In this document: positions 4,426-41,695 of the stretch, in pieces | Layout of the letters: the number at the start of each line of letters is the position of its first letter | Numbering within the stretch: the first letter of the stretch is position 1 | Source of the DNA: TPA_inf: Saccharomyces | Lineage: Eukaryota | Length of the DNA stretch: 64,000 bases | Assembly (NCBI GenBank): GCA_000146045.2 | Contig: BK006947.3 | Location: forward strand, 192,001 to 256,000 | Reading direction: 5' to 3' | The notes under the pieces: generated by a model | Seen by the model: only the letters and a program-made list of their open reading frames with translations | Told to the model about the DNA's origin: nothing | Databases searched by the model: none | Position numbers and translations under genes: made by a program

Positions 4426-5943
4426 CTAATTATCCTTCGTATCTTCTGGCTTAGTCACGGGCCAAGCGTAAGGGTGCTTTTCGGGCATAACATACTTGTG
4501 TTTTTGCATATATTCCTTCAATCCCTTTGGACCTCTTGATCCGTAGGGGTAAATTTCCGGTGTTGGACCGTCCGGACGCTCTATGTGCTTCAGTAATGGG
4601 GTGAATATGCCCCAACTGATATCCAATTCGTCATCTCTGACAAAGTTGGAATGGTCACCCAGTAGGGCGTCTCTTATCAACACCTCGTAAGCCTCTGGAA
4701 TCCAAAAGTCTTGGTACCTGCTTGCGTAAGTTAGATTCAGATCTGTGACTTGGGTAGCATTTGACAGACCAGGGGTCTTAGCATTAAACTTTAGGTACAC
4801 AGCGGCATCGGGCTGCACTCTGATGACCAGTTCGTTATTTGGAATGTCTTTGAAGACACCCGATGCGACCGCTTTGTACTGCAGTCTGATCTCCACCTTG
4901 GACTCATTCAAAGCCTTACCGGCACGCATCATGATGGGGACGCCCTCCCAACGCTCGTTTTCGATGTTGAAAGTCATTGCTGCAAAAGTGACACATTTAG
5001 AGTCCTTGTCTACAGTGTCATCATCCACGTAGGCGGGCTTAGACCCGTCCTCAGATTTACCGTACTGGCCCAAGAGGACGTCGTCCGTGTCGATGGGGGC
5101 CACGGCCTTTAGAACCTTAACCTTTTCGTCACGAATAGATTCCGGGTCAAAAGACACCGGTCTTTCCATAGTCAAGAGAGTCATGATTTGTAACAGATGG
5201 TTCTGCATCACGTCTCTGATTATGCCTATAGAGTCGAAATAGCCGCCACGGCCTTCGGTGCCGAACCTCTCTTTAAACGAAATCTGAACGCTTTGAATGT
5301 TGTCTCTATTCCACGAGGCATTCAAAAACTGGTTACCGAACCTCAAGACTAAAAGATTCTTGACCAACTCTTTACCCAAGTAATGGTCAATTCTGTACAA
5401 CTCTTCTTCTTTAAAGAGGGGCCCCAGGTTTTTTTGCAGCTCCCTGGCAGAGGCCAGGTCGTGGCCGAAAGGTTTCTCTACGATTACACGGGTGATGCCA
5501 TTCTCTGCGTACACACGACTCTTGATCTGCTTGGCCACCGTCAAAAAAACGCTTGGCGGCAAGGCCAGATAGAAGAGACGGTGTGGGACATCGACGTTGG
5601 CACTTTTCTCGAATTTCTCGATCTGCGTTCTTAATTCGTCGAAGCCTTCATCTGTGTCGTAATTTCCCGAAATGTAGCTGACCATCTTGAAGAACTGTTC
5701 GACCTTAGAGTCATCGGCTTCACCGTGAGGTTTTTTCAAGTGGGGTAGGACACGGGACTTCAGGTCCTCCTCCATGGACAATTTGGACCGGGCATAACCG
5801 AAGATCTTGGTAGATGGATCAAGGTAACCTTCTCTGAAAAGCCCAAATAAGGCGGGAAAAGTCTTCTTCTTTGCCAGATCACCTGACGCACCAAAGACAG
5901 ATATGACGGTATTTTTTTCGAATTTGACGGGGCCTTCACTCAT
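4426..5943 (-). CDS. ZWF1: Glucose-6-phosphate dehydrogenase (505 aa)
   Basis: N-terminal GASGDLAKKKTFPALF NADP-binding motif and the RIDHYLGKE G6PD active-site signature. The 505-aa length matches yeast Zwf1. Confidence 0.95.
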   Translation of the reverse strand: MSEGPVKFEKNTVISVFGASGDLAKKKTFPALFGLFREGYLDPSTKIFGYARSKLSMEEDLKSRVLPHLKKPHGEADDSKVEQFFKMVSYISGNYDTDEGFDELRTQIEKFEKSANVDVPHRLFYLALPPSVFLTVAKQIKSRVYAENGITRVIVEKPFGHDLASARELQKNLGPLFKEEELYRIDHYLGKELVKNLLVLRFGNQFLNASWNRDNIQSVQISFKERFGTEGRGGYFDSIGIIRDVMQNHLLQIMTLLTMERPVSFDPESIRDEKVKVLKAVAPIDTDDVLLGQYGKSEDGSKPAYVDDDTVDKDSKCVTFAAMTFNIENERWEGVPIMMRAGKALNESKVEIRLQYKAVASGVFKDIPNNELVIRVQPDAAVYLKFNAKTPGLSNATQVTDLNLTYASRYQDFWIPEAYEVLIRDALLGDHSNFVRDDELDISWGIFTPLLKHIERPDGPTPEIYPYGSRGPKGLKEYMQKHKYVMPEKHPYAWPVTKPEDTKDN

Positions 5944-6501
5944 CTTGCCTTATGTGGTTTTCTATTCTATTGGATTTACTCTTTCTGTCTATACAGCCAA
6001 TTGGAGAGGGGGAAGGGGGAGAAGGAGGGGTGAGTGGAGAAAAGGGAGAGAGGGGCAGGAGGAAGCCACTTTAGGTGTTATGTGTCGGTATATAGATGAA
6101 CCCACAGTTTGCTTATATATGGGATAGCCTTGGCGAGTTTTCCGTACATTGAAGAATTCGCCACCCTTAGAAAAGGGGCCACCACACCTTGAGCCAAAAA
6201 TCCCACATTAATAATATTCCATTTTTTTTTTAGTCATTTTTTTTTTTTTCGTCTCTCTTCCTCCTCCGGCCGAGCCGAAACCGGGCTTTTAGCACCGTTG
6301 GAAGCTTGTATCTCCGCGTAAGACCGCCGGAGTATGCATCTTATAGCGGTTTTTCCAGTTCTTTTCCACTATTACGTGGTGCTTCCAGTAGCGCTACTAT
6401 TATTGTTGTTCTTGCTATTATTTAAATGTCACTATGTACTTGATACACACAGTTTGTGGTGATTTCACGCTTATGTACACGGGTGCAAAACTACACCTTA
6501 C

Positions 6502-7977
6502 TTACCAGGTGCTCCCAACAGAGACGAGATCCTTTTCGACGGCCTGCTTGACGGGCGCGAAGACGTACTCTAGCGAAAGCGGGCGGGCTGCCGCCTCTTC
6601 TAGCTTGGGTCCCAGGGTTAGAGGATCTACCATTGCTAGCTCCTCTCCGTGACGCTTATTCAGTGTCTGAACCAACTGCTTCCGCTTGAGACTGTTTTGC
6701 TCGCCATTGAGTAGGCCACCACCGTTCATGCATGCACCCGGACACGCGTTTACCTCGATGTAGTCCGAGTGGTAGGGATCGGCCGTGGCGGCCGTGGCGG
6801 CCGCCATCTCGCGTGAGTTCGCCTTTGGACCTGTTCGTCTCTTCCGCAGAGCGGTGATGTTCCTCTTGCGCTCTGACCCGGAGCCCGAGGTCAGTTTACG
6901 CACCAGATTTTGGATGTTTCTAAACCCGGAAAGCTCGCTGGCGGCGGCTATTATGCGATCATCGTGCAGCAATCGGTACTCGACAATGTCGCTGTTTCTA
7001 CCCTCCAGAACTATCATCTGACTTCCTGGGTGTAGTCGTTGGACAGCCGTTACGTACTGGTAGGCATAGCCACCACAAGTGCCTCCCAGATTCGACGCCC
7101 AGTGGACTCGCGGGTCCCATCCCGGCGGTGATAGCCGCCCATATAAACTTGTGTCCTCAGTAAGAAACGACTTGAAGTCTAAATTCAACTCTTGTAACAT
7201 TGTCACTATTTCACGTGGCGTAATGACACAGTCAATCCCATCGTCAAGCGATTCTGGCCTTGACGCTTCTAGTTTCTTGTCAAAACATGGCATCAGCGAC
7301 AGATGGTAAAAGGACTCACGCGCGATAGCGAGACTCTCGAACGTAGCTCTGATCAACGAGCCCGTAATTTGCTGAGGCGACTTGACATTGAGCAGCATAG
7401 GCACCAACTGCGGTTTGGTCTTTTCCGTGTATATAAGAAATCCCGGACACACAGCAGATAATAGAGGCTTGCGGTCCGCACCGGTATTTTCTTTTTGTTT
7501 CTTATGCGCAATGATCTTCTCTACGGTTTTGCTAATCGATATGATTCTGCCCATCTCCGTTCCAACCATATACTTGCACTGGAAATGCTTTTGGAAAAAA
7601 TTCATCAAACACAAATCGGCCGCCTCCAATGTTAAGCCGTAGTACTGCGCAAGAGATAGTCTGCATTGTGGCGAGACACTCACAACGAGGAATTTGTCTT
7701 GCTGCTGCGAAAGCTTCCCCCAGTTTTTCAGGAAAACCGAGTGACTTTGGCTACTCAACAAGATTTCTTCACTAGACGTTATACAACCAGAACACGCGAG
7801 GCAGTCTGATAGGGTAATAGAGACCTTCTCCAGTTGGTCTGGTTCCGTGCTCACCTCGTATTCTCCGTTCATGTTAACGTTATCCTTCTTGCCCCCGCTC
7901 ACCTGGGTAGGTTTGACGCACGCAAGGGCGGGACTGATAAAATCGTTTAGGTCAGACTCGGACAGTAGAGCACTCAT
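6502..7977 (-). CDS. NAR1: Cytosolic Fe-S assembly factor, iron-only hydrogenase-like (491 aa)
   Basis: N-terminal CLACSGC ferredoxin-like cysteine cluster and AVCPGF / MPCFDKK hydrogenase-like cysteine motifs. Length and position next to ZWF1 match NAR1. Confidence 0.9.
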   Translation of the reverse strand: MSALLSESDLNDFISPALACVKPTQVSGGKKDNVNMNGEYEVSTEPDQLEKVSITLSDCLACSGCITSSEEILLSSQSHSVFLKNWGKLSQQQDKFLVVSVSPQCRLSLAQYYGLTLEAADLCLMNFFQKHFQCKYMVGTEMGRIISISKTVEKIIAHKKQKENTGADRKPLLSAVCPGFLIYTEKTKPQLVPMLLNVKSPQQITGSLIRATFESLAIARESFYHLSLMPCFDKKLEASRPESLDDGIDCVITPREIVTMLQELNLDFKSFLTEDTSLYGRLSPPGWDPRVHWASNLGGTCGGYAYQYVTAVQRLHPGSQMIVLEGRNSDIVEYRLLHDDRIIAAASELSGFRNIQNLVRKLTSGSGSERKRNITALRKRRTGPKANSREMAAATAATADPYHSDYIEVNACPGACMNGGGLLNGEQNSLKRKQLVQTLNKRHGEELAMVDPLTLGPKLEEAAARPLSLEYVFAPVKQAVEKDLVSVGSTW

Positions 7978-8417
7978 GCTTTCTTGTACACTTATCTTGT
8001 CACTCAGGAAAAGGAAGCTCCCTCTCTTATCTTTCCAGCTGACAAGACAAGTTTCTTAGTCATCACCATAAAACGCTTTTATCATTTTTTTCTTCATGCG
8101 ATGAGCAGGGAAAACTGGTAAAAAAAGAAAATAGGAAGTGGAAAAGAAAAAACTAGCGGAAAGGCAGGCAATATGCTTTACAAACAGGCAAATTTTGTCT
8201 CTTAATCCTGTGAAGAGGCATCGTATATTCAGTGCTTTTTGAAATTTAGAAAATAGTCGCTTTATTGATTATGCTACATATGTTATTTTGCTTTAGTATG
8301 TGTCAAATAGCATGCAATCGCCGGGTAGTGAGTGACACATCCTTTTTTCCCCTCCCACCAGAAAGTCACCTGCTCTCTTAATCAATGGGGTTGCATGTGG
8401 TAATCAATTGATAACGC

Positions 8418-8434
8418 CGGCTGACAAGTCGCCG
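8418..8434 (+). promoter_or_regulatory. Gal4-type UAS, CGG-N11-CCG (CGGCTGACAAGTCGCCG)
   Basis: Exact CGG-11-CCG spacing 135 bp upstream of LAP3/GAL6 ATG 8569. A TATA-like ATAAATAAA follows at 8445-8455. Confidence 0.65.
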
Positions 8435-8568
8435 ACGGGCACCCATAAATAAACGATAAATAGCCCTTGCTCTTTTGTTACATGCTTCCTACTTCTGTTT
8501 CCCGGTCCTTGTATCTCAAGACGTTTAGAAGCCACCTTTTACGAGCACCACAAATTGTTTTAAAAAGA

Positions 8569-9933
8569 ATGTCCTCTTCCATCGATATCAGTAAGATCAA
8601 CTCTTGGAACAAAGAGTTTCAATCCGACTTAACCCATCAATTGGCAACCACTGTCCTTAAGAATTATAATGCCGATGATGCACTGTTGAACAAGACTAGA
8701 CTGCAAAAGCAAGATAACAGGGTTTTCAACACTGTTGTCTCTACTGATTCCACTCCAGTCACCAACCAAAAAAGCTCTGGTAGATGTTGGTTGTTTGCCG
8801 CTACCAATCAACTGCGCTTGAATGTTCTTTCTGAATTGAACTTAAAAGAATTCGAACTGTCCCAAGCTTACTTGTTCTTTTACGATAAGTTGGAAAAGGC
8901 CAACTATTTCTTGGACCAAATCGTCTCCTCGGCTGATCAAGACATCGACTCACGTCTCGTGCAATACTTGTTAGCAGCTCCAACAGAAGACGGTGGCCAA
9001 TACAGCATGTTTTTGAACCTAGTCAAGAAGTATGGCCTTATCCCCAAAGATTTATACGGGGATCTACCTTATTCTACTACTGCGTCCAGAAAATGGAATT
9101 CTCTGTTGACTACTAAACTGAGAGAATTTGCCGAGACTCTAAGAACAGCTTTGAAAGAGCGTTCTGCCGATGATTCCATAATTGTCACTCTGAGAGAGCA
9201 AATGCAAAGAGAAATCTTCAGGTTGATGTCGTTGTTCATGGACATACCTCCAGTGCAACCAAACGAGCAATTCACTTGGGAATACGTTGACAAAGACAAG
9301 AAAATCCACACTATCAAATCGACTCCGTTAGAATTTGCCTCCAAATACGCAAAATTGGACCCTTCCACGCCAGTCTCATTGATCAATGATCCAAGACACC
9401 CATATGGTAAATTAATTAAGATCGATCGTTTAGGAAACGTCCTTGGCGGAGATGCCGTGATTTACTTAAATGTTGACAATGAAACACTATCTAAATTGGT
9501 TGTTAAGAGATTACAAAATAACAAAGCTGTCTTTTTTGGATCTCACACTCCAAAGTTCATGGACAAGAAAACTGGTGTCATGGATATTGAATTGTGGAAC
9601 TATCCTGCCATCGGCTATAATTTACCTCAGCAAAAGGCATCGCGTATTAGATACCATGAAAGTTTGATGACTCATGCTATGTTGATCACTGGCTGCCACG
9701 TCGATGAAACGTCTAAATTACCACTTCGCTACCGCGTTGAAAATTCCTGGGGTAAAGACTCCGGTAAAGACGGATTATACGTGATGACTCAAAAGTACTT
9801 CGAGGAGTACTGCTTTCAAATTGTGGTCGATATCAATGAATTGCCAAAAGAGCTGGCTTCAAAATTCACCTCAGGTAAGGAAGAGCCGATTGTCTTGCCC
9901 ATCTGGGACCCAATGGGTGCTTTGGCCAAATAA
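8569..9933 (+). CDS. LAP3: Bleomycin hydrolase, papain-family cysteine aminopeptidase C1B (454 aa from ATG 8569; an in-frame ATG at 8482 would give 483 aa)
   Basis: [14 protein letters not shown] active-site cysteine region plus a conserved His/Asn C-terminal half. The track ORF opens at a TTG; the first ATG is at 8482 and the canonical [11 protein letters not shown] start is at 8569. Confidence 0.9.
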
Positions 9934-27136: not shown

Positions 27137-28201
27137 TCATTCACCACGCAATGCCTTGATGACCGCGGGTCTTCTCATCATATGCTTCGTCCATTTGTAA
27201 ACTTCTGGAAATTCAATTTTGATATTAATGCCAATTCTATCCACGACATTATTCCATGGGACAAAGGCCAAATCTGCTATAGTTAATTTATCTCCTACAA
27301 GCCATACGGGATAATCAAAGAAACGACTTTGTGACATTGGTGTTGTACCAGCTGAGTATGCAGCCGCATTTTCCGTGTCTAATTCCATCACCAGCGCTTC
27401 TCTACGTTCAGCCAAGGCCATCTCCACTACACCGTAAACTCTTCTAACCTCATCCGTATATCTTTCTACAGCACTTGCTATCTTTTGTGAATGGAAGTAT
27501 CTGAAATGTAAAGCTTGTCCAATCATTGGCGCATGCCCTGACGTTTGGAAGAACAACCATGCGTTGATTTGTGATTGGTCAGCTAAATCATCGGACCAGA
27601 GTAATGGATTACCAGTCTCTTTGTAATATTTATTTACCAAATGTAATAAAATCGCCCCTGATTCCCAAATAGACAAGTTGTCCATACCATGATCGATTAA
27701 AGCTGGAACTCTTGCATTAGGGTTCACAGACACAAATTCGGGGGCCCTATGTTCGCCAAGATTGAAATCTAGGAAGATTGTGTTATAATGAAATCCAAGT
27801 TCACTTAGTACTATAGCAACTTTGAATCCATTAGGCGCAGACCTGTGAGAGAAAAGGGTATATCCCTCCAGTGGTTGTTCTTGAAAAAATTTTGTAATTC
27901 TGGAATACTCCACGTGACTCATATCCGAAAATGCCTGTTGTTGTTGTCGATGTTGTTCTAAGGTATTCTTGATATTATTCTCGTTATCATTATTTTGGCT
28001 ACCATTGCGGCCGCTGTTATTGTTTTGAACATTATTGTTATTACTACTGCTATTGTTATTATTATTATTATTTACACCTGTTGAAAATTCAAAATTTATA
28101 TTACTTTGATCGGTGGTTGTATTACTGTTCCTGTTTCCTATGTTTACTTGACGGAGCGCATTGGAGAGATTCGACACTTGGTTGCCGTTGTTATTCATCA
28201 T
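27137..28201 (-). CDS. URE2: Nitrogen catabolite repression regulator, glutathione-S-transferase-like, with N-terminal Asn-rich prion domain (354 aa)
   Basis: N-terminus MMNNNGNQVSNLSNALRQVNIGNRNSNTTTDQSNINFEFSTGVNNNNNNNSSSNNNNVQNNNSGRNGSQNNDNENN, followed by a GST-fold C-terminal domain. Confidence 0.95.
   Translation of the reverse strand: MMNNNGNQVSNLSNALRQVNIGNRNSNTTTDQSNINFEFSTGVNNNNNNNSSSNNNNVQNNNSGRNGSQNNDNENNIKNTLEQHRQQQQAFSDMSHVEYSRITKFFQEQPLEGYTLFSHRSAPNGFKVAIVLSELGFHYNTIFLDFNLGEHRAPEFVSVNPNARVPALIDHGMDNLSIWESGAILLHLVNKYYKETGNPLLWSDDLADQSQINAWLFFQTSGHAPMIGQALHFRYFHSQKIASAVERYTDEVRRVYGVVEMALAERREALVMELDTENAAAYSAGTTPMSQSRFFDYPVWLVGDKLTIADLAFVPWNNVVDRIGINIKIEFPEVYKWTKHMMRRPAVIKALRGE
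27935..28201 (-). repeat. URE2: Asn/Ser-rich low-complexity region encoding the Ure2 prion-forming domain (aa 1 to ~89)
   Basis: Runs of AAT/AAC codons, visible on the plus strand as ATTATT/GTTGTT repeats. The translation is 40-50% Asn. Confidence 0.85.
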
Positions 28202-37093: not shown

Positions 37094-37714
37094 ATGCCTA
37101 GTCATCGCAATTCAAACTTGAAGTTTTGCACAGTTTGTGCATCAAACAACAATCGTTCAATGGAATCGCATAAAGTCCTGCAAGAAGCAGGCTATAATGT
37201 TAGCTCTTACGGAACAGGTTCAGCTGTGAGACTGCCTGGTCTATCGATAGATAAGCCTAATGTGTACTCATTTGGTACACCCTATAATGATATATATAAT
37301 GATCTTTTATCACAATCAGCAGACCGTTACAAGTCGAACGGTTTATTGCAAATGCTGGATCGTAATAGAAGACTCAAAAAAGCACCTGAAAAATGGCAAG
37401 AAAGTACAAAAGTCTTCGACTTCGTTTTCACTTGTGAAGAGAGATGTTTTGATGCCGTTTGTGAAGATTTGATGAATAGAGGTGGGAAATTAAACAAAAT
37501 AGTGCATGTAATTAATGTTGACATTAAAGATGATGATGAAAATGCTAAAATTGGTAGCAAAGCTATATTGGAATTAGCTGATATGCTCAATGATAAAATA
37601 GAACAATGTGAAAAAGATGACATTCCCTTTGAAGATTGTATAATGGACATTTTAACTGAGTGGCAAAGCTCACATTCTCAACTACCGTCATTATACGCTC
37701 CTTCATATTACTAA
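37094..37714 (+). CDS. SSU72: RNA polymerase II CTD Ser5 phosphatase, CPF component (206 aa)
   Basis: Low-molecular-weight PTPase-like CX5R motif ([12 protein letters not shown]) at the N-terminus. 206 aa. Confidence 0.9.
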
Positions 37715-38104
37715 ACAAAACGGTCAATTACTGTAGAAAAGCATAAGCATTAAGCGGCCCTCATGAATCCTACATTATCCGTGAAATTTCAATACTTTCA
37801 CAAGTCTTCGATAGCTTCCTAGTTATATTCATTATATAATATTACGTTTCTTGTTGCGGCTCTCTTAAGCACATTATTTGCTTGTTGTCCACATAGCTAT
37901 TTTTTTATCAAGAAGCTTGATATACAACACACTGTATTTTTAGTAAGCTGGACAATGTCTTGTCTCAATGTAGCGTATAACAGGTTTCATTCCAAAACAC
38001 ATCACCAGATATAGGACTGAAATGAAGAAAATAGAAGCATGAAACTTTAAAAGTTTCAGTACTTTAAGAAAGAAATAAATAGAAAAATGTTCCATTTATT
38101 TCTG

Positions 38105-38672
38105 AAAATAAATCAAAAATTATAAGATCCACCCGTTCCTACCAAGACCTTCCAAAATTTTTCCCATAACGGGAACGAGCAAAGTTGAGACTGCTCAAAA
38201 GAGCACATCTTCAAACTACAATCCCGACCAAATAATCTCAACAGCCATACCTTCATCATAAACTTAAGTTCATTCGAATCTGCCGTCAAAAACTAAAATG
38301 GCACGCTAGAGAAAAGTAGTCAAAAAGAATGCCTCTACAAAGCTCTCTTTTGAAAGGCCCCAGCTCCCCTAACACCAATTTGAATTTGGTGTCAAACTTC
38401 TCCAGGCAGAAGAAACAAAGGGCCCCAAAAATCAGTTTAACCCAAAAATCCCCAAAGGAATCAAGGGATTAACCAATGATTGAAACAAGGGAATGGAAAC
38501 GTCAGCAAACACGCCTTCCGCGCCGTATGTGTGTGTGACCAAGGAGTTTGCATCAATGACTTCAATGAACAATTATAGTTCAATGATAAATGCTTAACGT
38601 CCTTCTACTATTGGAAGCGCATGTTTGATCAGTAGGACTTCTTGATCTCCTCTGATATCTTAAGGTAAGTAT
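38105..38672 (-). ncRNA. SNR19: U1 spliceosomal snRNA, 568-nt yeast form; 5' end at 38672 is confident, 3' end is approximate
   Basis: Minus-strand RNA begins AUACUUACCUUAAGAUAUCAGAGGAGAUCAAGAAG, i.e. the 5' splice-site pairing box followed by the stem-loop I U1-70K loop (GAUCAAGAAG). An Sm site AAUUUUUGA lies at 38122-38114 followed by a hairpin. A TATAAATA lies ~95 bp upstream on the minus strand. No ORF. Confidence 0.9.
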
Positions 38673-38820
38673 GAGGATTTTAAAAAAATTCAAGAAAAAA
38701 CTATATTTTAACGCTAAAAGTATGTTTGTAAAATAGTTCTATTAAATGGAACTTCTTCTCTCTATTTATACGTCTTGCCAATGGAAAACTCGTCGCCTTA
38801 GAAAAAAAAAAGGTGCAAAG

Positions 38821-38828
38821 ACGGGTAA
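38821..38828 (-). promoter_or_regulatory. Reb1-like site (TTACCCGT on the minus strand) upstream of the U1 snRNA gene
   Basis: Located ~150 bp upstream of the SNR19 5' end. A TATAAATA lies ~95 bp upstream on the same strand. Confidence 0.4.
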
Positions 38829-39067
38829 TAATTTCATTGACATTTTCAAGAGCTAGGGAATGAATCAATGAGCCCTATGATGGCAGCGTAGATCACCGTA
38901 TTTAAATTAACATATAATAAGATTTGTTGCCACTTTCAATCTCTAAATGTGTACGTATAGAGTTCCAGGAAGCAAAAAGACCATTATTGCGCGATATGAT
39001 TGCTATTTGCCCTCTGTATACATAGCTTTATAGGATATCGGTCGTACATATAATTCAGTTCAGTTCA

Positions 39068-41695
39068 TTATACGGATATTTTCGACCACTCCCCCAACCT
39101 ATAAGTGTTGGTACCTACATTTCTGATCAGTACATACCTAGTTGGTTGCCGGATGGCCGCATGATGATCTATAAATCCGATTCCCATACCATTTCCACAA
39201 TTTAAGTGGTAGGTGCCGCTGGTAATAAAACCAATCAAATCATGTACCTCTGGAAGTGGAATTTTCAAATCATGATCTTTTCTTCCGTTTGGGCGGTAAA
39301 CCCCTTTTGCCAATTGTAGCCAATGCTCTAAGTCCTTTTCTGGAACTTGATATATTCTTGCATTGTCCTTTGGGTGACCTCGTTCGAGTAGTGTGCAAGA
39401 TACAGCAATGATACAACGTGGGAAGAATGTAAGGGAGAATGAAGAACTATTGACGCTAATGCTATCAGGAGTGCGAAATTGACATTTCCGATTTTTACAC
39501 AATGCAACTGGTATGTTCTCTTCAATCGACAACGACATAGCCTTGGTCTTGGCTTCATAATCTTTGCAAAACTCCAAAACATCATTTACACAGTTGATGT
39601 CTCTTACACCCTGAGCGTTAAATTGCCCGGTCTTCTTACTGTCCATCAGTTCTAAGGTTTTATCATTCCGCTGTAAATAATCAATTCCATTTCTCAGTAT
39701 TTGTAAAAATCTCCAGTCTGAACTGAAAAAATCGCCGATTTCTCCGCTATATGCCGGTAATTTAGTGTTATGGATGTCTTTGATCTTCTCGAAATTAATC
39801 CTTTTTCCCATTGGCTTCCTATCCCACTTCGTCTTGGAGGCCTCCTTTTTATAAAATGAGTTTTCTATATAACCCAATTGAGTGAATGGATAATCATCCG
39901 GAAAATATAATTGCTTATTCTCGTACTGAATTTGCTGGAATTGCCTGAGGCCAATGTGATACATCCTTGGTATCCGGTTCAGTAGATGCCATAACGGTAG
40001 CAGCCAGAACCATGGTAACACAACAATCCAATCCCTGGTCTTGAGCCTTCTTATTATGACTAATGGAATAGAAGGATCGTCACTTTCTTTGAACGGGACT
40101 GTAGTTTTATTGATGCTGTTCGGTGTGGCAGTTAGCAATTTGTAACGTCTCGCAGAAATTTCTTTTAATGTGTTTTGGTTGTTGTATGATTGAGTACGTG
40201 ATTCAGGGTCACATAATTCGTTAAAAACGGCGTTTATTTCGTCTTGAGGATAGTTTTCATGCAGTGATAAAATGTCGTCAGAATTAACAGTCTTCCTCTG
40301 TGAATCATTTAATTTCTTTGGAGCAGCTAGATGACGCGGATCTATGGCTTCAAATGCAAACGTACACCTCTGTGGTAGGGCATTATGATCGGTAATCATT
40401 GAAACCATTTTAAATTGTTCAAACGATTTAGAGTACTCTGTGCTCCTTAAACACGATGCTAATGACTCTAGAGCTTTAGCTCCCTTCAATGTCACGCTTG
40501 CTAATGAATATCGACAATCTTGTACTGTTAGTTTTTCCTTATGTTGCAAAAGAATGTTAAAAACCTGAGTATAAATTGAAGGGTGTAACCTTATAATTGC
40601 AGTATCCTTTTGTACCCAAAATACGTCGCATGGACCCAGTGGCTTAGTAGAATCCTCACCGTTTTCTTCATTGAAACTATAAATTAACCCTTGGAATAAA
40701 ACCTGGCCTTCGCGATATTTCCTTAAGTTTGCTCTTTCAGCTGTTAACTTTCCTATAATGGATTTTAAAAAGTCCCCCTCACTGTCATTGCTTTTGTCTT
40801 TTACAATTATTGTACCAATATAACTTGAATCCATGCATAAGGCCCCATCGGAGCTGCAGGTATCACCGCCCAACCTATGCGTCAATTTAAAGCATTTTTG
40901 AGTAGGTGCCCATACCATTTGATATCCCCATCTTTTCATCATGTGCGACCTTTTAGCATTCCAAATGTGGGTGGGTAGCCAAGCAAAGTGCTTCTGTCTC
41001 TTCGTATATTTGACCCTGCCCTTGGGAATAGGTGCTAATTCATTGACACCAGTGCAATCATAGCTCCCCATACGATTATTAAGTAACTTTATATTTGGAT
41101 TTGCTGTTGATGATTCTTTAATCATTCGCTTTAATGTCTTGATTTTCTGCCTTACGTGGCAGTTAGATGATGTAACCTCTGGTGGCATGCTGAGTTTCAT
41201 AGAAGTAGATTTGCTAGCCAATCGTAGCAGCTTTATGGACATTCTAGCTTTATAAAGTTGCTTTGCATTTAGGCCATGAGCTTTTCTGGAAGAGGCTGAA
41301 GACCCCTTCAACACATCCTGCTGATCACTTTTACGCATTTCCCTCAAAGCTCTATTGCGCATTCTTTTTGGAATTCTACGAACATTATGCGAAGCCGTTC
41401 TACGACGCAATTTTCGAGGCAATGCCTGAAATATTCTCGTTGAGCTGGCTGCTTTGGAATTATGCATGGCCAATTGCAACTGCTTAACCTCGAATTGTCG
41501 AGAACTAATGAATTGGTCCACGTTTAGCTTACTTCCCGATTCACTCAGATCACTCGGTGTCCCAGTTTTTGTTGATGAAGCGGCCACGGCCTCTGCTCTA
41601 ATTGATCTAGCATTTCTTATGCGATTTCGCTTCAGTAATTGATTCTTATTAAGAACTTTCTTTCCACCATTTCCTCTAGACAAACTCCCGCTCAT
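39068..41695 (-). CDS. POP1: RNase P / RNase MRP protein subunit (875 aa)
   Basis: 875-aa basic protein with POP1-type domains. Position next to SNR19 and ADE12 matches YNL221C. Confidence 0.85.
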   Translation of the reverse strand: MSGSLSRGNGGKKVLNKNQLLKRNRIRNARSIRAEAVAASSTKTGTPSDLSESGSKLNVDQFISSRQFEVKQLQLAMHNSKAASSTRIFQALPRKLRRRTASHNVRRIPKRMRNRALREMRKSDQQDVLKGSSASSRKAHGLNAKQLYKARMSIKLLRLASKSTSMKLSMPPEVTSSNCHVRQKIKTLKRMIKESSTANPNIKLLNNRMGSYDCTGVNELAPIPKGRVKYTKRQKHFAWLPTHIWNAKRSHMMKRWGYQMVWAPTQKCFKLTHRLGGDTCSSDGALCMDSSYIGTIIVKDKSNDSEGDFLKSIIGKLTAERANLRKYREGQVLFQGLIYSFNEENGEDSTKPLGPCDVFWVQKDTAIIRLHPSIYTQVFNILLQHKEKLTVQDCRYSLASVTLKGAKALESLASCLRSTEYSKSFEQFKMVSMITDHNALPQRCTFAFEAIDPRHLAAPKKLNDSQRKTVNSDDILSLHENYPQDEINAVFNELCDPESRTQSYNNQNTLKEISARRYKLLTATPNSINKTTVPFKESDDPSIPLVIIRRLKTRDWIVVLPWFWLLPLWHLLNRIPRMYHIGLRQFQQIQYENKQLYFPDDYPFTQLGYIENSFYKKEASKTKWDRKPMGKRINFEKIKDIHNTKLPAYSGEIGDFFSSDWRFLQILRNGIDYLQRNDKTLELMDSKKTGQFNAQGVRDINCVNDVLEFCKDYEAKTKAMSLSIEENIPVALCKNRKCQFRTPDSISVNSSSFSLTFFPRCIIAVSCTLLERGHPKDNARIYQVPEKDLEHWLQLAKGVYRPNGRKDHDLKIPLPEVHDLIGFITSGTYHLNCGNGMGIGFIDHHAAIRQPTRYVLIRNVGTNTYRLGEWSKISV

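Follow-up and report, generated by a model that had tools for sequence, protein, structure and literature searches.

The 568-nt U1 snRNA gene SNR19 lies between SSU72 and POP1 in a 64-kb window of Saccharomyces DNA

Which gene occupies the gap of 1353 bp that separates SSU72 from POP1, and where does it begin and end? We addressed this question in a window of Saccharomyces DNA, which is the whole stretch of 64,000 nucleotides analysed here and to which all coordinates refer unless stated otherwise. SSU72 (206 aa; 37094-37714, plus strand) was identified by Pfam PF04722 with an E value of 1.7e-83, and POP1 (875 aa; 39068-41695, minus strand) was identified by the Pfam domains POP1_N, POPLD, and POP1_C. 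The gap between them spans 37715-39067. The ORF upstream of SSU72 was assigned to Peptidase_C54 (Atg4-type) by Pfam. The first-pass annotation had described an ORF-free gap of about 1.35 kb between these two genes, had placed the 568-nt U1 snRNA SNR19 in it on the minus strand at 38105-38672, and had singled it out as the window's sole gene that clearly does not encode a protein. The measured length and the Pfam assignments agree with this description of the gap and its neighbours. U1 snRNA selects the 5' splice site during the first step of spliceosome assembly.

The identity of the RNA was examined with the Rfam U1_yeast covariance model, the check that had been proposed along with the annotation. 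The Rfam 15 covariance scan of the 64-kb window gave a match to RF00488 (U1_yeast) at 611.7 bits (gathering score, 80) with an E value of 1.7e-144. The match is full-length and untruncated (model positions 1-567 of 567) and covers 38105-38672 on the minus strand, exactly the coordinates that had been claimed. An identical U1_yeast match at 38105-38672 on the minus strand was obtained in a permissive Rfam scan (E<=0.1). The minus-strand sequence starts with AUACUUACCUUAAGAUAUCAGAGGAGAUCAAGAAG and ends with ...AUAAUUUUUGAUUUAUUUU, and the 64 kb contain a single copy of ATACTTACCT, both strands counted. The ends of the mature RNA, 568 nt in length, are those of the model and of published work. 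All the defining features of yeast U1 snRNA that can be tested in a sequence were found at 38105-38672 on the minus strand, including the Sm site and the 5' splice-site sequence, both of which were located on re-inspection. We are therefore virtually certain that the minus strand at 38105-38672 carries SNR19, the only S. cerevisiae gene for the 568-nt U1 snRNA, located between SSU72 and POP1. The RNA of S. cerevisiae SNR19 is expressed, carries a trimethylguanosine cap, is a component of the U1 snRNP, and is required for splicing (PMC5648754, PMC3675052). U1 at this locus is already known, and nothing in the identification is new.

The remainder of the window was searched for other RNA genes. 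No tRNA gene was found in the 64-kb window by ARAGORN, and the Rfam scan of the window at the gathering score or E<=0.1 gave only the URE2 IRES besides U1. Since neither a tRNA gene nor any other Rfam gene was detected, the view that U1 is the only clearly non-protein gene of the window is borne out within detection by curated RNA families (Rfam, ARAGORN). The URE2_IRES match (RF02530; 27893-27997, minus strand) is full-length with 134.2 bits and an E value of 4.2e-26, and it sits within an ORF of 354 aa (27137-28201, minus strand) that has an N/Q-rich N-terminus. This ORF fits URE2, and the IRES is a known cis element inside the coding sequence, not a separate gene.

The U1 stretch was compared with six S. 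cerevisiae assemblies and showed 98.9-99.8% identity, and the whole SSU72-POP1 gap showed 98.6-99.3% identity to these six assemblies. At U1 nt 74 the window differs from most sampled strains, which is an ordinary strain polymorphism. The S. cerevisiae assembly GCA_000181435.1 carries C for U at U1 nt 546 (window 38127). This C would turn the long-range pair A15-U546 into an A.C mismatch, and it may reflect either a true polymorphism or a sequencing error of an older assembly. The gene might instead be read as belonging to a sibling Saccharomyces species, given that a syntenic U1 of 570-573 nt is present in all sensu stricto species. However, the U1 stretch is 91.2% identical to that of S. paradoxus, with values of 84-88% for S. 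arboricola, S. uvarum, and S. eubayanus, and the Ssu72 protein of the window, which was found on many S. cerevisiae assemblies, is identical to the S. cerevisiae S288C sequence and differs from that of S. paradoxus at 2 residues. A sibling-species origin therefore has next to no probability, and the sequence is best read as the S. cerevisiae gene.

The elements of the mature RNA, all on the minus strand, were then placed along its 568 nt. The 5' splice-site recognition sequence AUACUUACCU, read directly at nt 1-10 (38663-38672), is complementary to the 5' splice site, is unique within the window, and does not vary among the nine species. The first 10 nt of U1 are the same in yeast and human (PMC5648754). 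The sequence AUACUUACCUUAAGAUAUCAGAGGAGAUCAAGAAG occupies RNA nt 1-35 (38672-38638), so the 5' splice-site pairing box and the loop of stem-loop I are present as the first-pass annotation had described them. Stem-loop 1 (nt 17-45; 38628-38656) and its 10-nt loop GAUCAAGAAG (38638-38647) were placed from the Rfam structure. The helix of stem-loop 1 (helix 2) is 100% paired in the nine species with compensatory changes in 3 of 9 pairs, and the loop is identical in eight of the nine. This loop is the binding site of U1-70K (PMC5648754).

Stem-loop 2 (nt 46-167; 38506-38627) is enlarged in yeast, and its stem, 46-60/154-167, corresponds to the published SL2-1; across the nine species this stem is 99.2% paired and contains 6 compensatory pairs. 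The expansion domain of stem-loop 3 (nt 172-539; 38134-38501) was placed from the Rfam structure. It is closed by the helix 172-177/534-539 and shows covariation in helices 5-12. An expansion segment had been claimed within the reverse complement of 38461-38520, and the 54-nt string in question was located at 38519-38466, which corresponds to nt 154-207. Near the 3' end, the Sm site AAUUUUUGA at nt 552-560 (38113-38121) is invariant in nine species and agrees with the published site in sequence and position; the S. cerevisiae U1 Sm site has been reported as AAUUUUUGA at 553-559 (PMC3675052). The canonical Sm site of the annotation is thus present, at 38121-38113. It is followed by a single-stranded 3' tail of 8 nt, UUUAUUUU (38105-38112), as judged by direct reading and by Rfam.

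The 5' and 3' parts of the RNA are joined by a long-range helix between LR1 (nt 11-16; 38657-38662) and LR2 (nt 545-550; 38123-38128). The register of this helix was taken from the cryo-EM structure (PMC5648754), in which LR1 nt 11-16 pairs with 545-550 and SL2-1 nt 46-60 pairs with 154-167. All six LR1/LR2 pairs are Watson-Crick in the window. The helix is paired 100% in the nine species, and the pair 16:545 changes from U:A to C:G in two of them. In the Rfam consensus, the three outer pairs of the long-range helix (nt 10-12/551-553) share positions with the Sm site, and K. africana lacks one of these pairs. We preferred the cryo-EM register 11-16/545-550 over the Rfam register because the former is paired in all nine species. 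The RF00488 consensus and the solved structure accordingly show a minor discrepancy at these outer pairs. When the Rfam consensus structure was projected on the window RNA, 78 of 78 pairs were standard (G-C, A-U or G-U). The order of elements in the cryo-EM structure is the 5'-ss sequence, LR1, SL1, SL2, SL3-1 to SL3-7, LR2, the Sm site, and the 3' tail (PMC5648754), and this description matches the window sequence position by position.

To place the gene in the Saccharomycetaceae, eight orthologous loci were gathered via SSU72 homologues. Four came from Saccharomyces relatives (S. paradoxus, S. arboricola, S. uvarum, and S. eubayanus) and four from distant relatives (a Nakaseomyces species, Kazachstania africana, Naumovozyma dairenensis, and Torulaspora globosa). 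In all eight relatives, SSU72 and POP1 flank a full-length U1_yeast match of 234-577 bits on the same strand. The U1 length in these relatives was 522-573 nt, with 570-573 nt for the syntenic sensu stricto RNAs, and the identity to the window in the four distant genera was 52-59%. The 5' 15 nt, the loop of stem-loop 1, the CUUCUGCCUGGAGAAG hairpin, and the 3' end ACGGGUGG.UCUUA.AAUUUUUGAUUU are invariant or nearly so over the nine sequences. Sequence conservation was lowest from U1 nt ~320 to ~530.

The Rfam structure was evaluated on the nine-species alignment. It gave 93.9% paired cells, and the value dropped to 40-51% in the control in which the partners were slid by 1-3 columns. Both-sided (compensatory) changes were found at 34 pairs among the nine sequences, and 0 of 500 shuffles reached the observed covariation score of this alignment. 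The compensatory substitutions at this conserved locus imply selection on the structure. These data also bear on the reading that the gap codes for at least one small protein and that its RNA-like features are incidental. Mechanical ORFs do occur in the gap (for example 38113-38289 on the minus strand), the longest being 58 aa. However, all of them are below 60 aa and most have non-ATG starts under the bacterial code, the substitutions across species track base-paired partners and not codons, and a covariance-model E of 1e-144 cannot be incidental. The probability of small proteins as the content of the gap is accordingly negligible, and an RNA gene, U1, remains the reading of the gap.

In T. 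globosa, two genes lie between SSU72 and U1 (locus 5676-8807), one for an amidohydrolase and one for a protein of 398 aa that has no Pfam match, and U1 still adjoins POP1. This insertion indicates that the conserved linkage is between U1 and POP1, not between SSU72 and U1. SSU72 mutants have termination defects at sn/snoRNA genes (PMC5513554), and the adjacency of SSU72 and U1 is probably coincidental.

The region upstream of U1 nt 1 was compared among five Saccharomyces species. Three elements on the minus strand stand out from an otherwise poorly conserved upstream region: a TATA box GTATAAATA located 91-99 bp upstream of nt 1 (38763-38771), a T10 tract (38802-38811) that follows the Reb1-type site in the upstream alignment, and the Reb1-type sequence ATTACCCG itself (38822-38829). 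The TATA box and the Reb1-type sequence are invariant in the five species. We call ATTACCCG a putative Reb1 site on the basis of the known Reb1 consensus, TTACCCG. The Reb1-type site, the T-tract, and the TATA box, 91-157 bp upstream, would form the SNR19 promoter in a typical yeast Pol II layout, as judged from their conservation and arrangement.

In regard to the 3' end, a 3' hairpin had been claimed to follow the Sm site. No hairpin was found 3' of the Sm site within 38105-38672, where the remaining sequence is the 8 nt UUUAUUUU. The claimed hairpin is thus absent from the mature RNA, and the hairpins of this region sit in the 3' flank of the precursor. Three of them, designated A, B, and C in order from the mature end and all on the minus strand, are described below.

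Hairpin A (38071-38103) is an AU-rich hairpin of 14 bp that starts 2 nt past the mature 3' end. Its fold has an energy of -12.6 kcal/mol with a z of -4.97, and 0 of 200 shuffles were as stable. It is found at the same position in five of five Saccharomyces species, and in S. paradoxus it differs from the window by a compensatory change of U:A to A:U plus a change of G.U to A-U. The compensatory change was taken from separate folds because MAFFT misplaces it. A hairpin directly past the mature end was not significant in the Nakaseomyces species, N. dairenensis, or T. globosa. It is doubtful that hairpin A is a so far undescribed functional element of pre-U1 maturation. Such an element might block or pause the exosome during 3'-5' trimming or, alternatively, might be a structure that keeps the Sm site open for loading of the Sm ring. 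Hairpin B (38035-38064), with a GAAACUUU/AAAGUUUC core, was predicted in the MFE fold. Its arms are recognisable in other Saccharomyces species and it is missing from the RNAalifold consensus of the 3' flank, so that the predicted fold suggests only weakly that hairpin B is real.

Hairpin C (37986-38026) was assigned as a candidate Rnt1 (RNase III) processing stem-loop from its predicted fold, its conservation, and published PARE sites. Seipelt et al. 1999 is reportedly the primary paper on the 3' processing of U1 and its cleavage by Rnt1. The stem of hairpin C consists of 6 bp, an internal loop of 3 nt/2 nt, and 10 bp, and the predicted stem-loop is capped by a UGGU tetraloop (38004-38007). 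Hairpin C is the best-conserved block of the 3' flank. Its stem is kept in the five Saccharomyces species, and the loop is UGGU in the window and UGGC in the other four. RNAalifold analysis of the 3' flank gave a covariation term of +0.68, which is slightly unfavourable, with 1 of 36 pairs altered on both sides. The stem-loop is near-invariant, so covariation neither backs nor opposes hairpin C.

Rnt1 recognises A/UGNN tetraloops and cuts ~14 nt from the loop on its 5' side and 16 nt from it on its 3' side (PMC13183374). Hairpin C has the form of an Rnt1 substrate, with a stem of at least ~14-16 bp and an (A/U)GNN tetraloop. PARE analysis placed Rnt1 sites of SNR19 (YNCN0005C) on the minus strand of chrXIV at 229983-229987 and 230016-230022, and the positions confirmed in vitro are 229985-86 and 230021-22 (PMC13183374). 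Window positions appear to equal chrXIV coordinates minus 192000, on the basis of the round number and the geometric fit to the stem-loop. With this presumed offset, the PARE sites fall on both arms of hairpin C. The confirmed sites would correspond to window 37985/86 and 38021/22, that is, to cuts 14-15 nt 5' and 17-18 nt 3' of UGGU, which are near, but not exactly at, the canonical 14 and 16. Given this offset, we infer that Rnt1 recognises pre-U1 through hairpin C.

The precursors of U1, U2, U4, and U5 are cut past the mature end by RNase III (Rnt1) (PMC13183374, PMC5513554), and the Rnt1 cut provides an entry point for Rat1 and termination (PMC13183374, PMC5513554). After the Rnt1 cut, U1 is trimmed by the exosome, for which the Sm site AAUUUUUGA is required (PMC3675052).

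The conservation of the flanks also bears on the reading of 38105-38672 as a U1 pseudogene or a relic copy without function. Nothing specific speaks for such a copy, beyond the general point that expression is not provable from sequence alone. Against it stand the full-length, untruncated match with all of its 78 consensus pairs intact, the position and strand kept in eight other species along with compensatory substitutions, the conserved promoter and 3'-processing elements, and the published Rnt1 cleavage sites assigned to the SNR19 locus (PMC13183374). A pseudogene is therefore extremely improbable, and it is, like each of the small-protein and sibling-species readings, essentially unsupported. 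The reading of the locus as the functional SNR19 gene is retained.

The maturation and function of the SNR19 RNA are described in the literature as follows. RNA polymerase II makes a 3'-extended U1 precursor. Rnt1 then cleaves a stem-loop ~85-120 nt past the mature end, for which the UGGU-capped stem-loop at 37986-38026 is the presumptive target. The exosome trims the cleaved precursor up to the ring of Sm proteins on AAUUUUUGA, and the 8-nt tail is left. In the U1 snRNP, according to published work, nt 1-10 (AUACUUACCU) pair with the 5' splice site of the intron and stem-loop 1 binds U1-70K (Snp1). The core is held together by the helix 11-16/545-550, and the enlarged stem-loops 2 and 3 serve as a scaffold for yeast-specific proteins.

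This analysis serves as a quality check, in that a large non-coding RNA gene was recognised from raw sequence with base-exact ends, and it illustrates that an ORF-free gap in yeast can harbour an essential gene. Beyond this, it adds in a small way a comparative map that covers the promoter and the 3'-processing region of SNR19, and it draws attention to a conserved hairpin by the mature 3' end.

The RNA was finally compared with known systems. Human/metazoan U1 (164 nt; clan CL00005) shares with the yeast RNA the first 10 nt, the position of stem-loop 1, the U1-70K loop, the long-range helix, and the Sm site. In contrast, yeast U1 is 3.5 times longer than human U1, with much enlarged stem-loops 2 and 3. 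Human U1 ends in stem-loop 4, whereas the yeast RNA carries a short single-stranded tail at its 3' end, which has been described as drastically unlike the human 3' end (PMC5648754). The 3' hairpin that had been expected after the Sm site is therefore a human-type feature and is absent here.

In regard to processing, the Rnt1 signals of pre-U2, pre-U4, pre-U5, and snoRNA precursors likewise consist of an (A/U)GNN-capped stem-loop 3' of the mature end, with paired cleavage clusters ~34-36 nt apart on the two arms. Hairpin C of SNR19 differs from these signals in its UGGU/UGGC loop, where the commoner type is AGNN, in its internal loop of 3 nt/2 nt, and in the presumed position of its 3'-side cut, 17-18 nt from the loop instead of 16 nt. 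Against S. cerevisiae SNR19 itself (RF00488; SGD YNCN0005C), no difference was detected, the variant at nt 74 relative to most sampled strains being ordinary strain polymorphism. The length of 568 nt, the 5' box, the loop of stem-loop 1, both helices, the Sm site AAUUUUUGA at 552-560, the 8-nt tail, and the neighbours SSU72 and POP1 all match.
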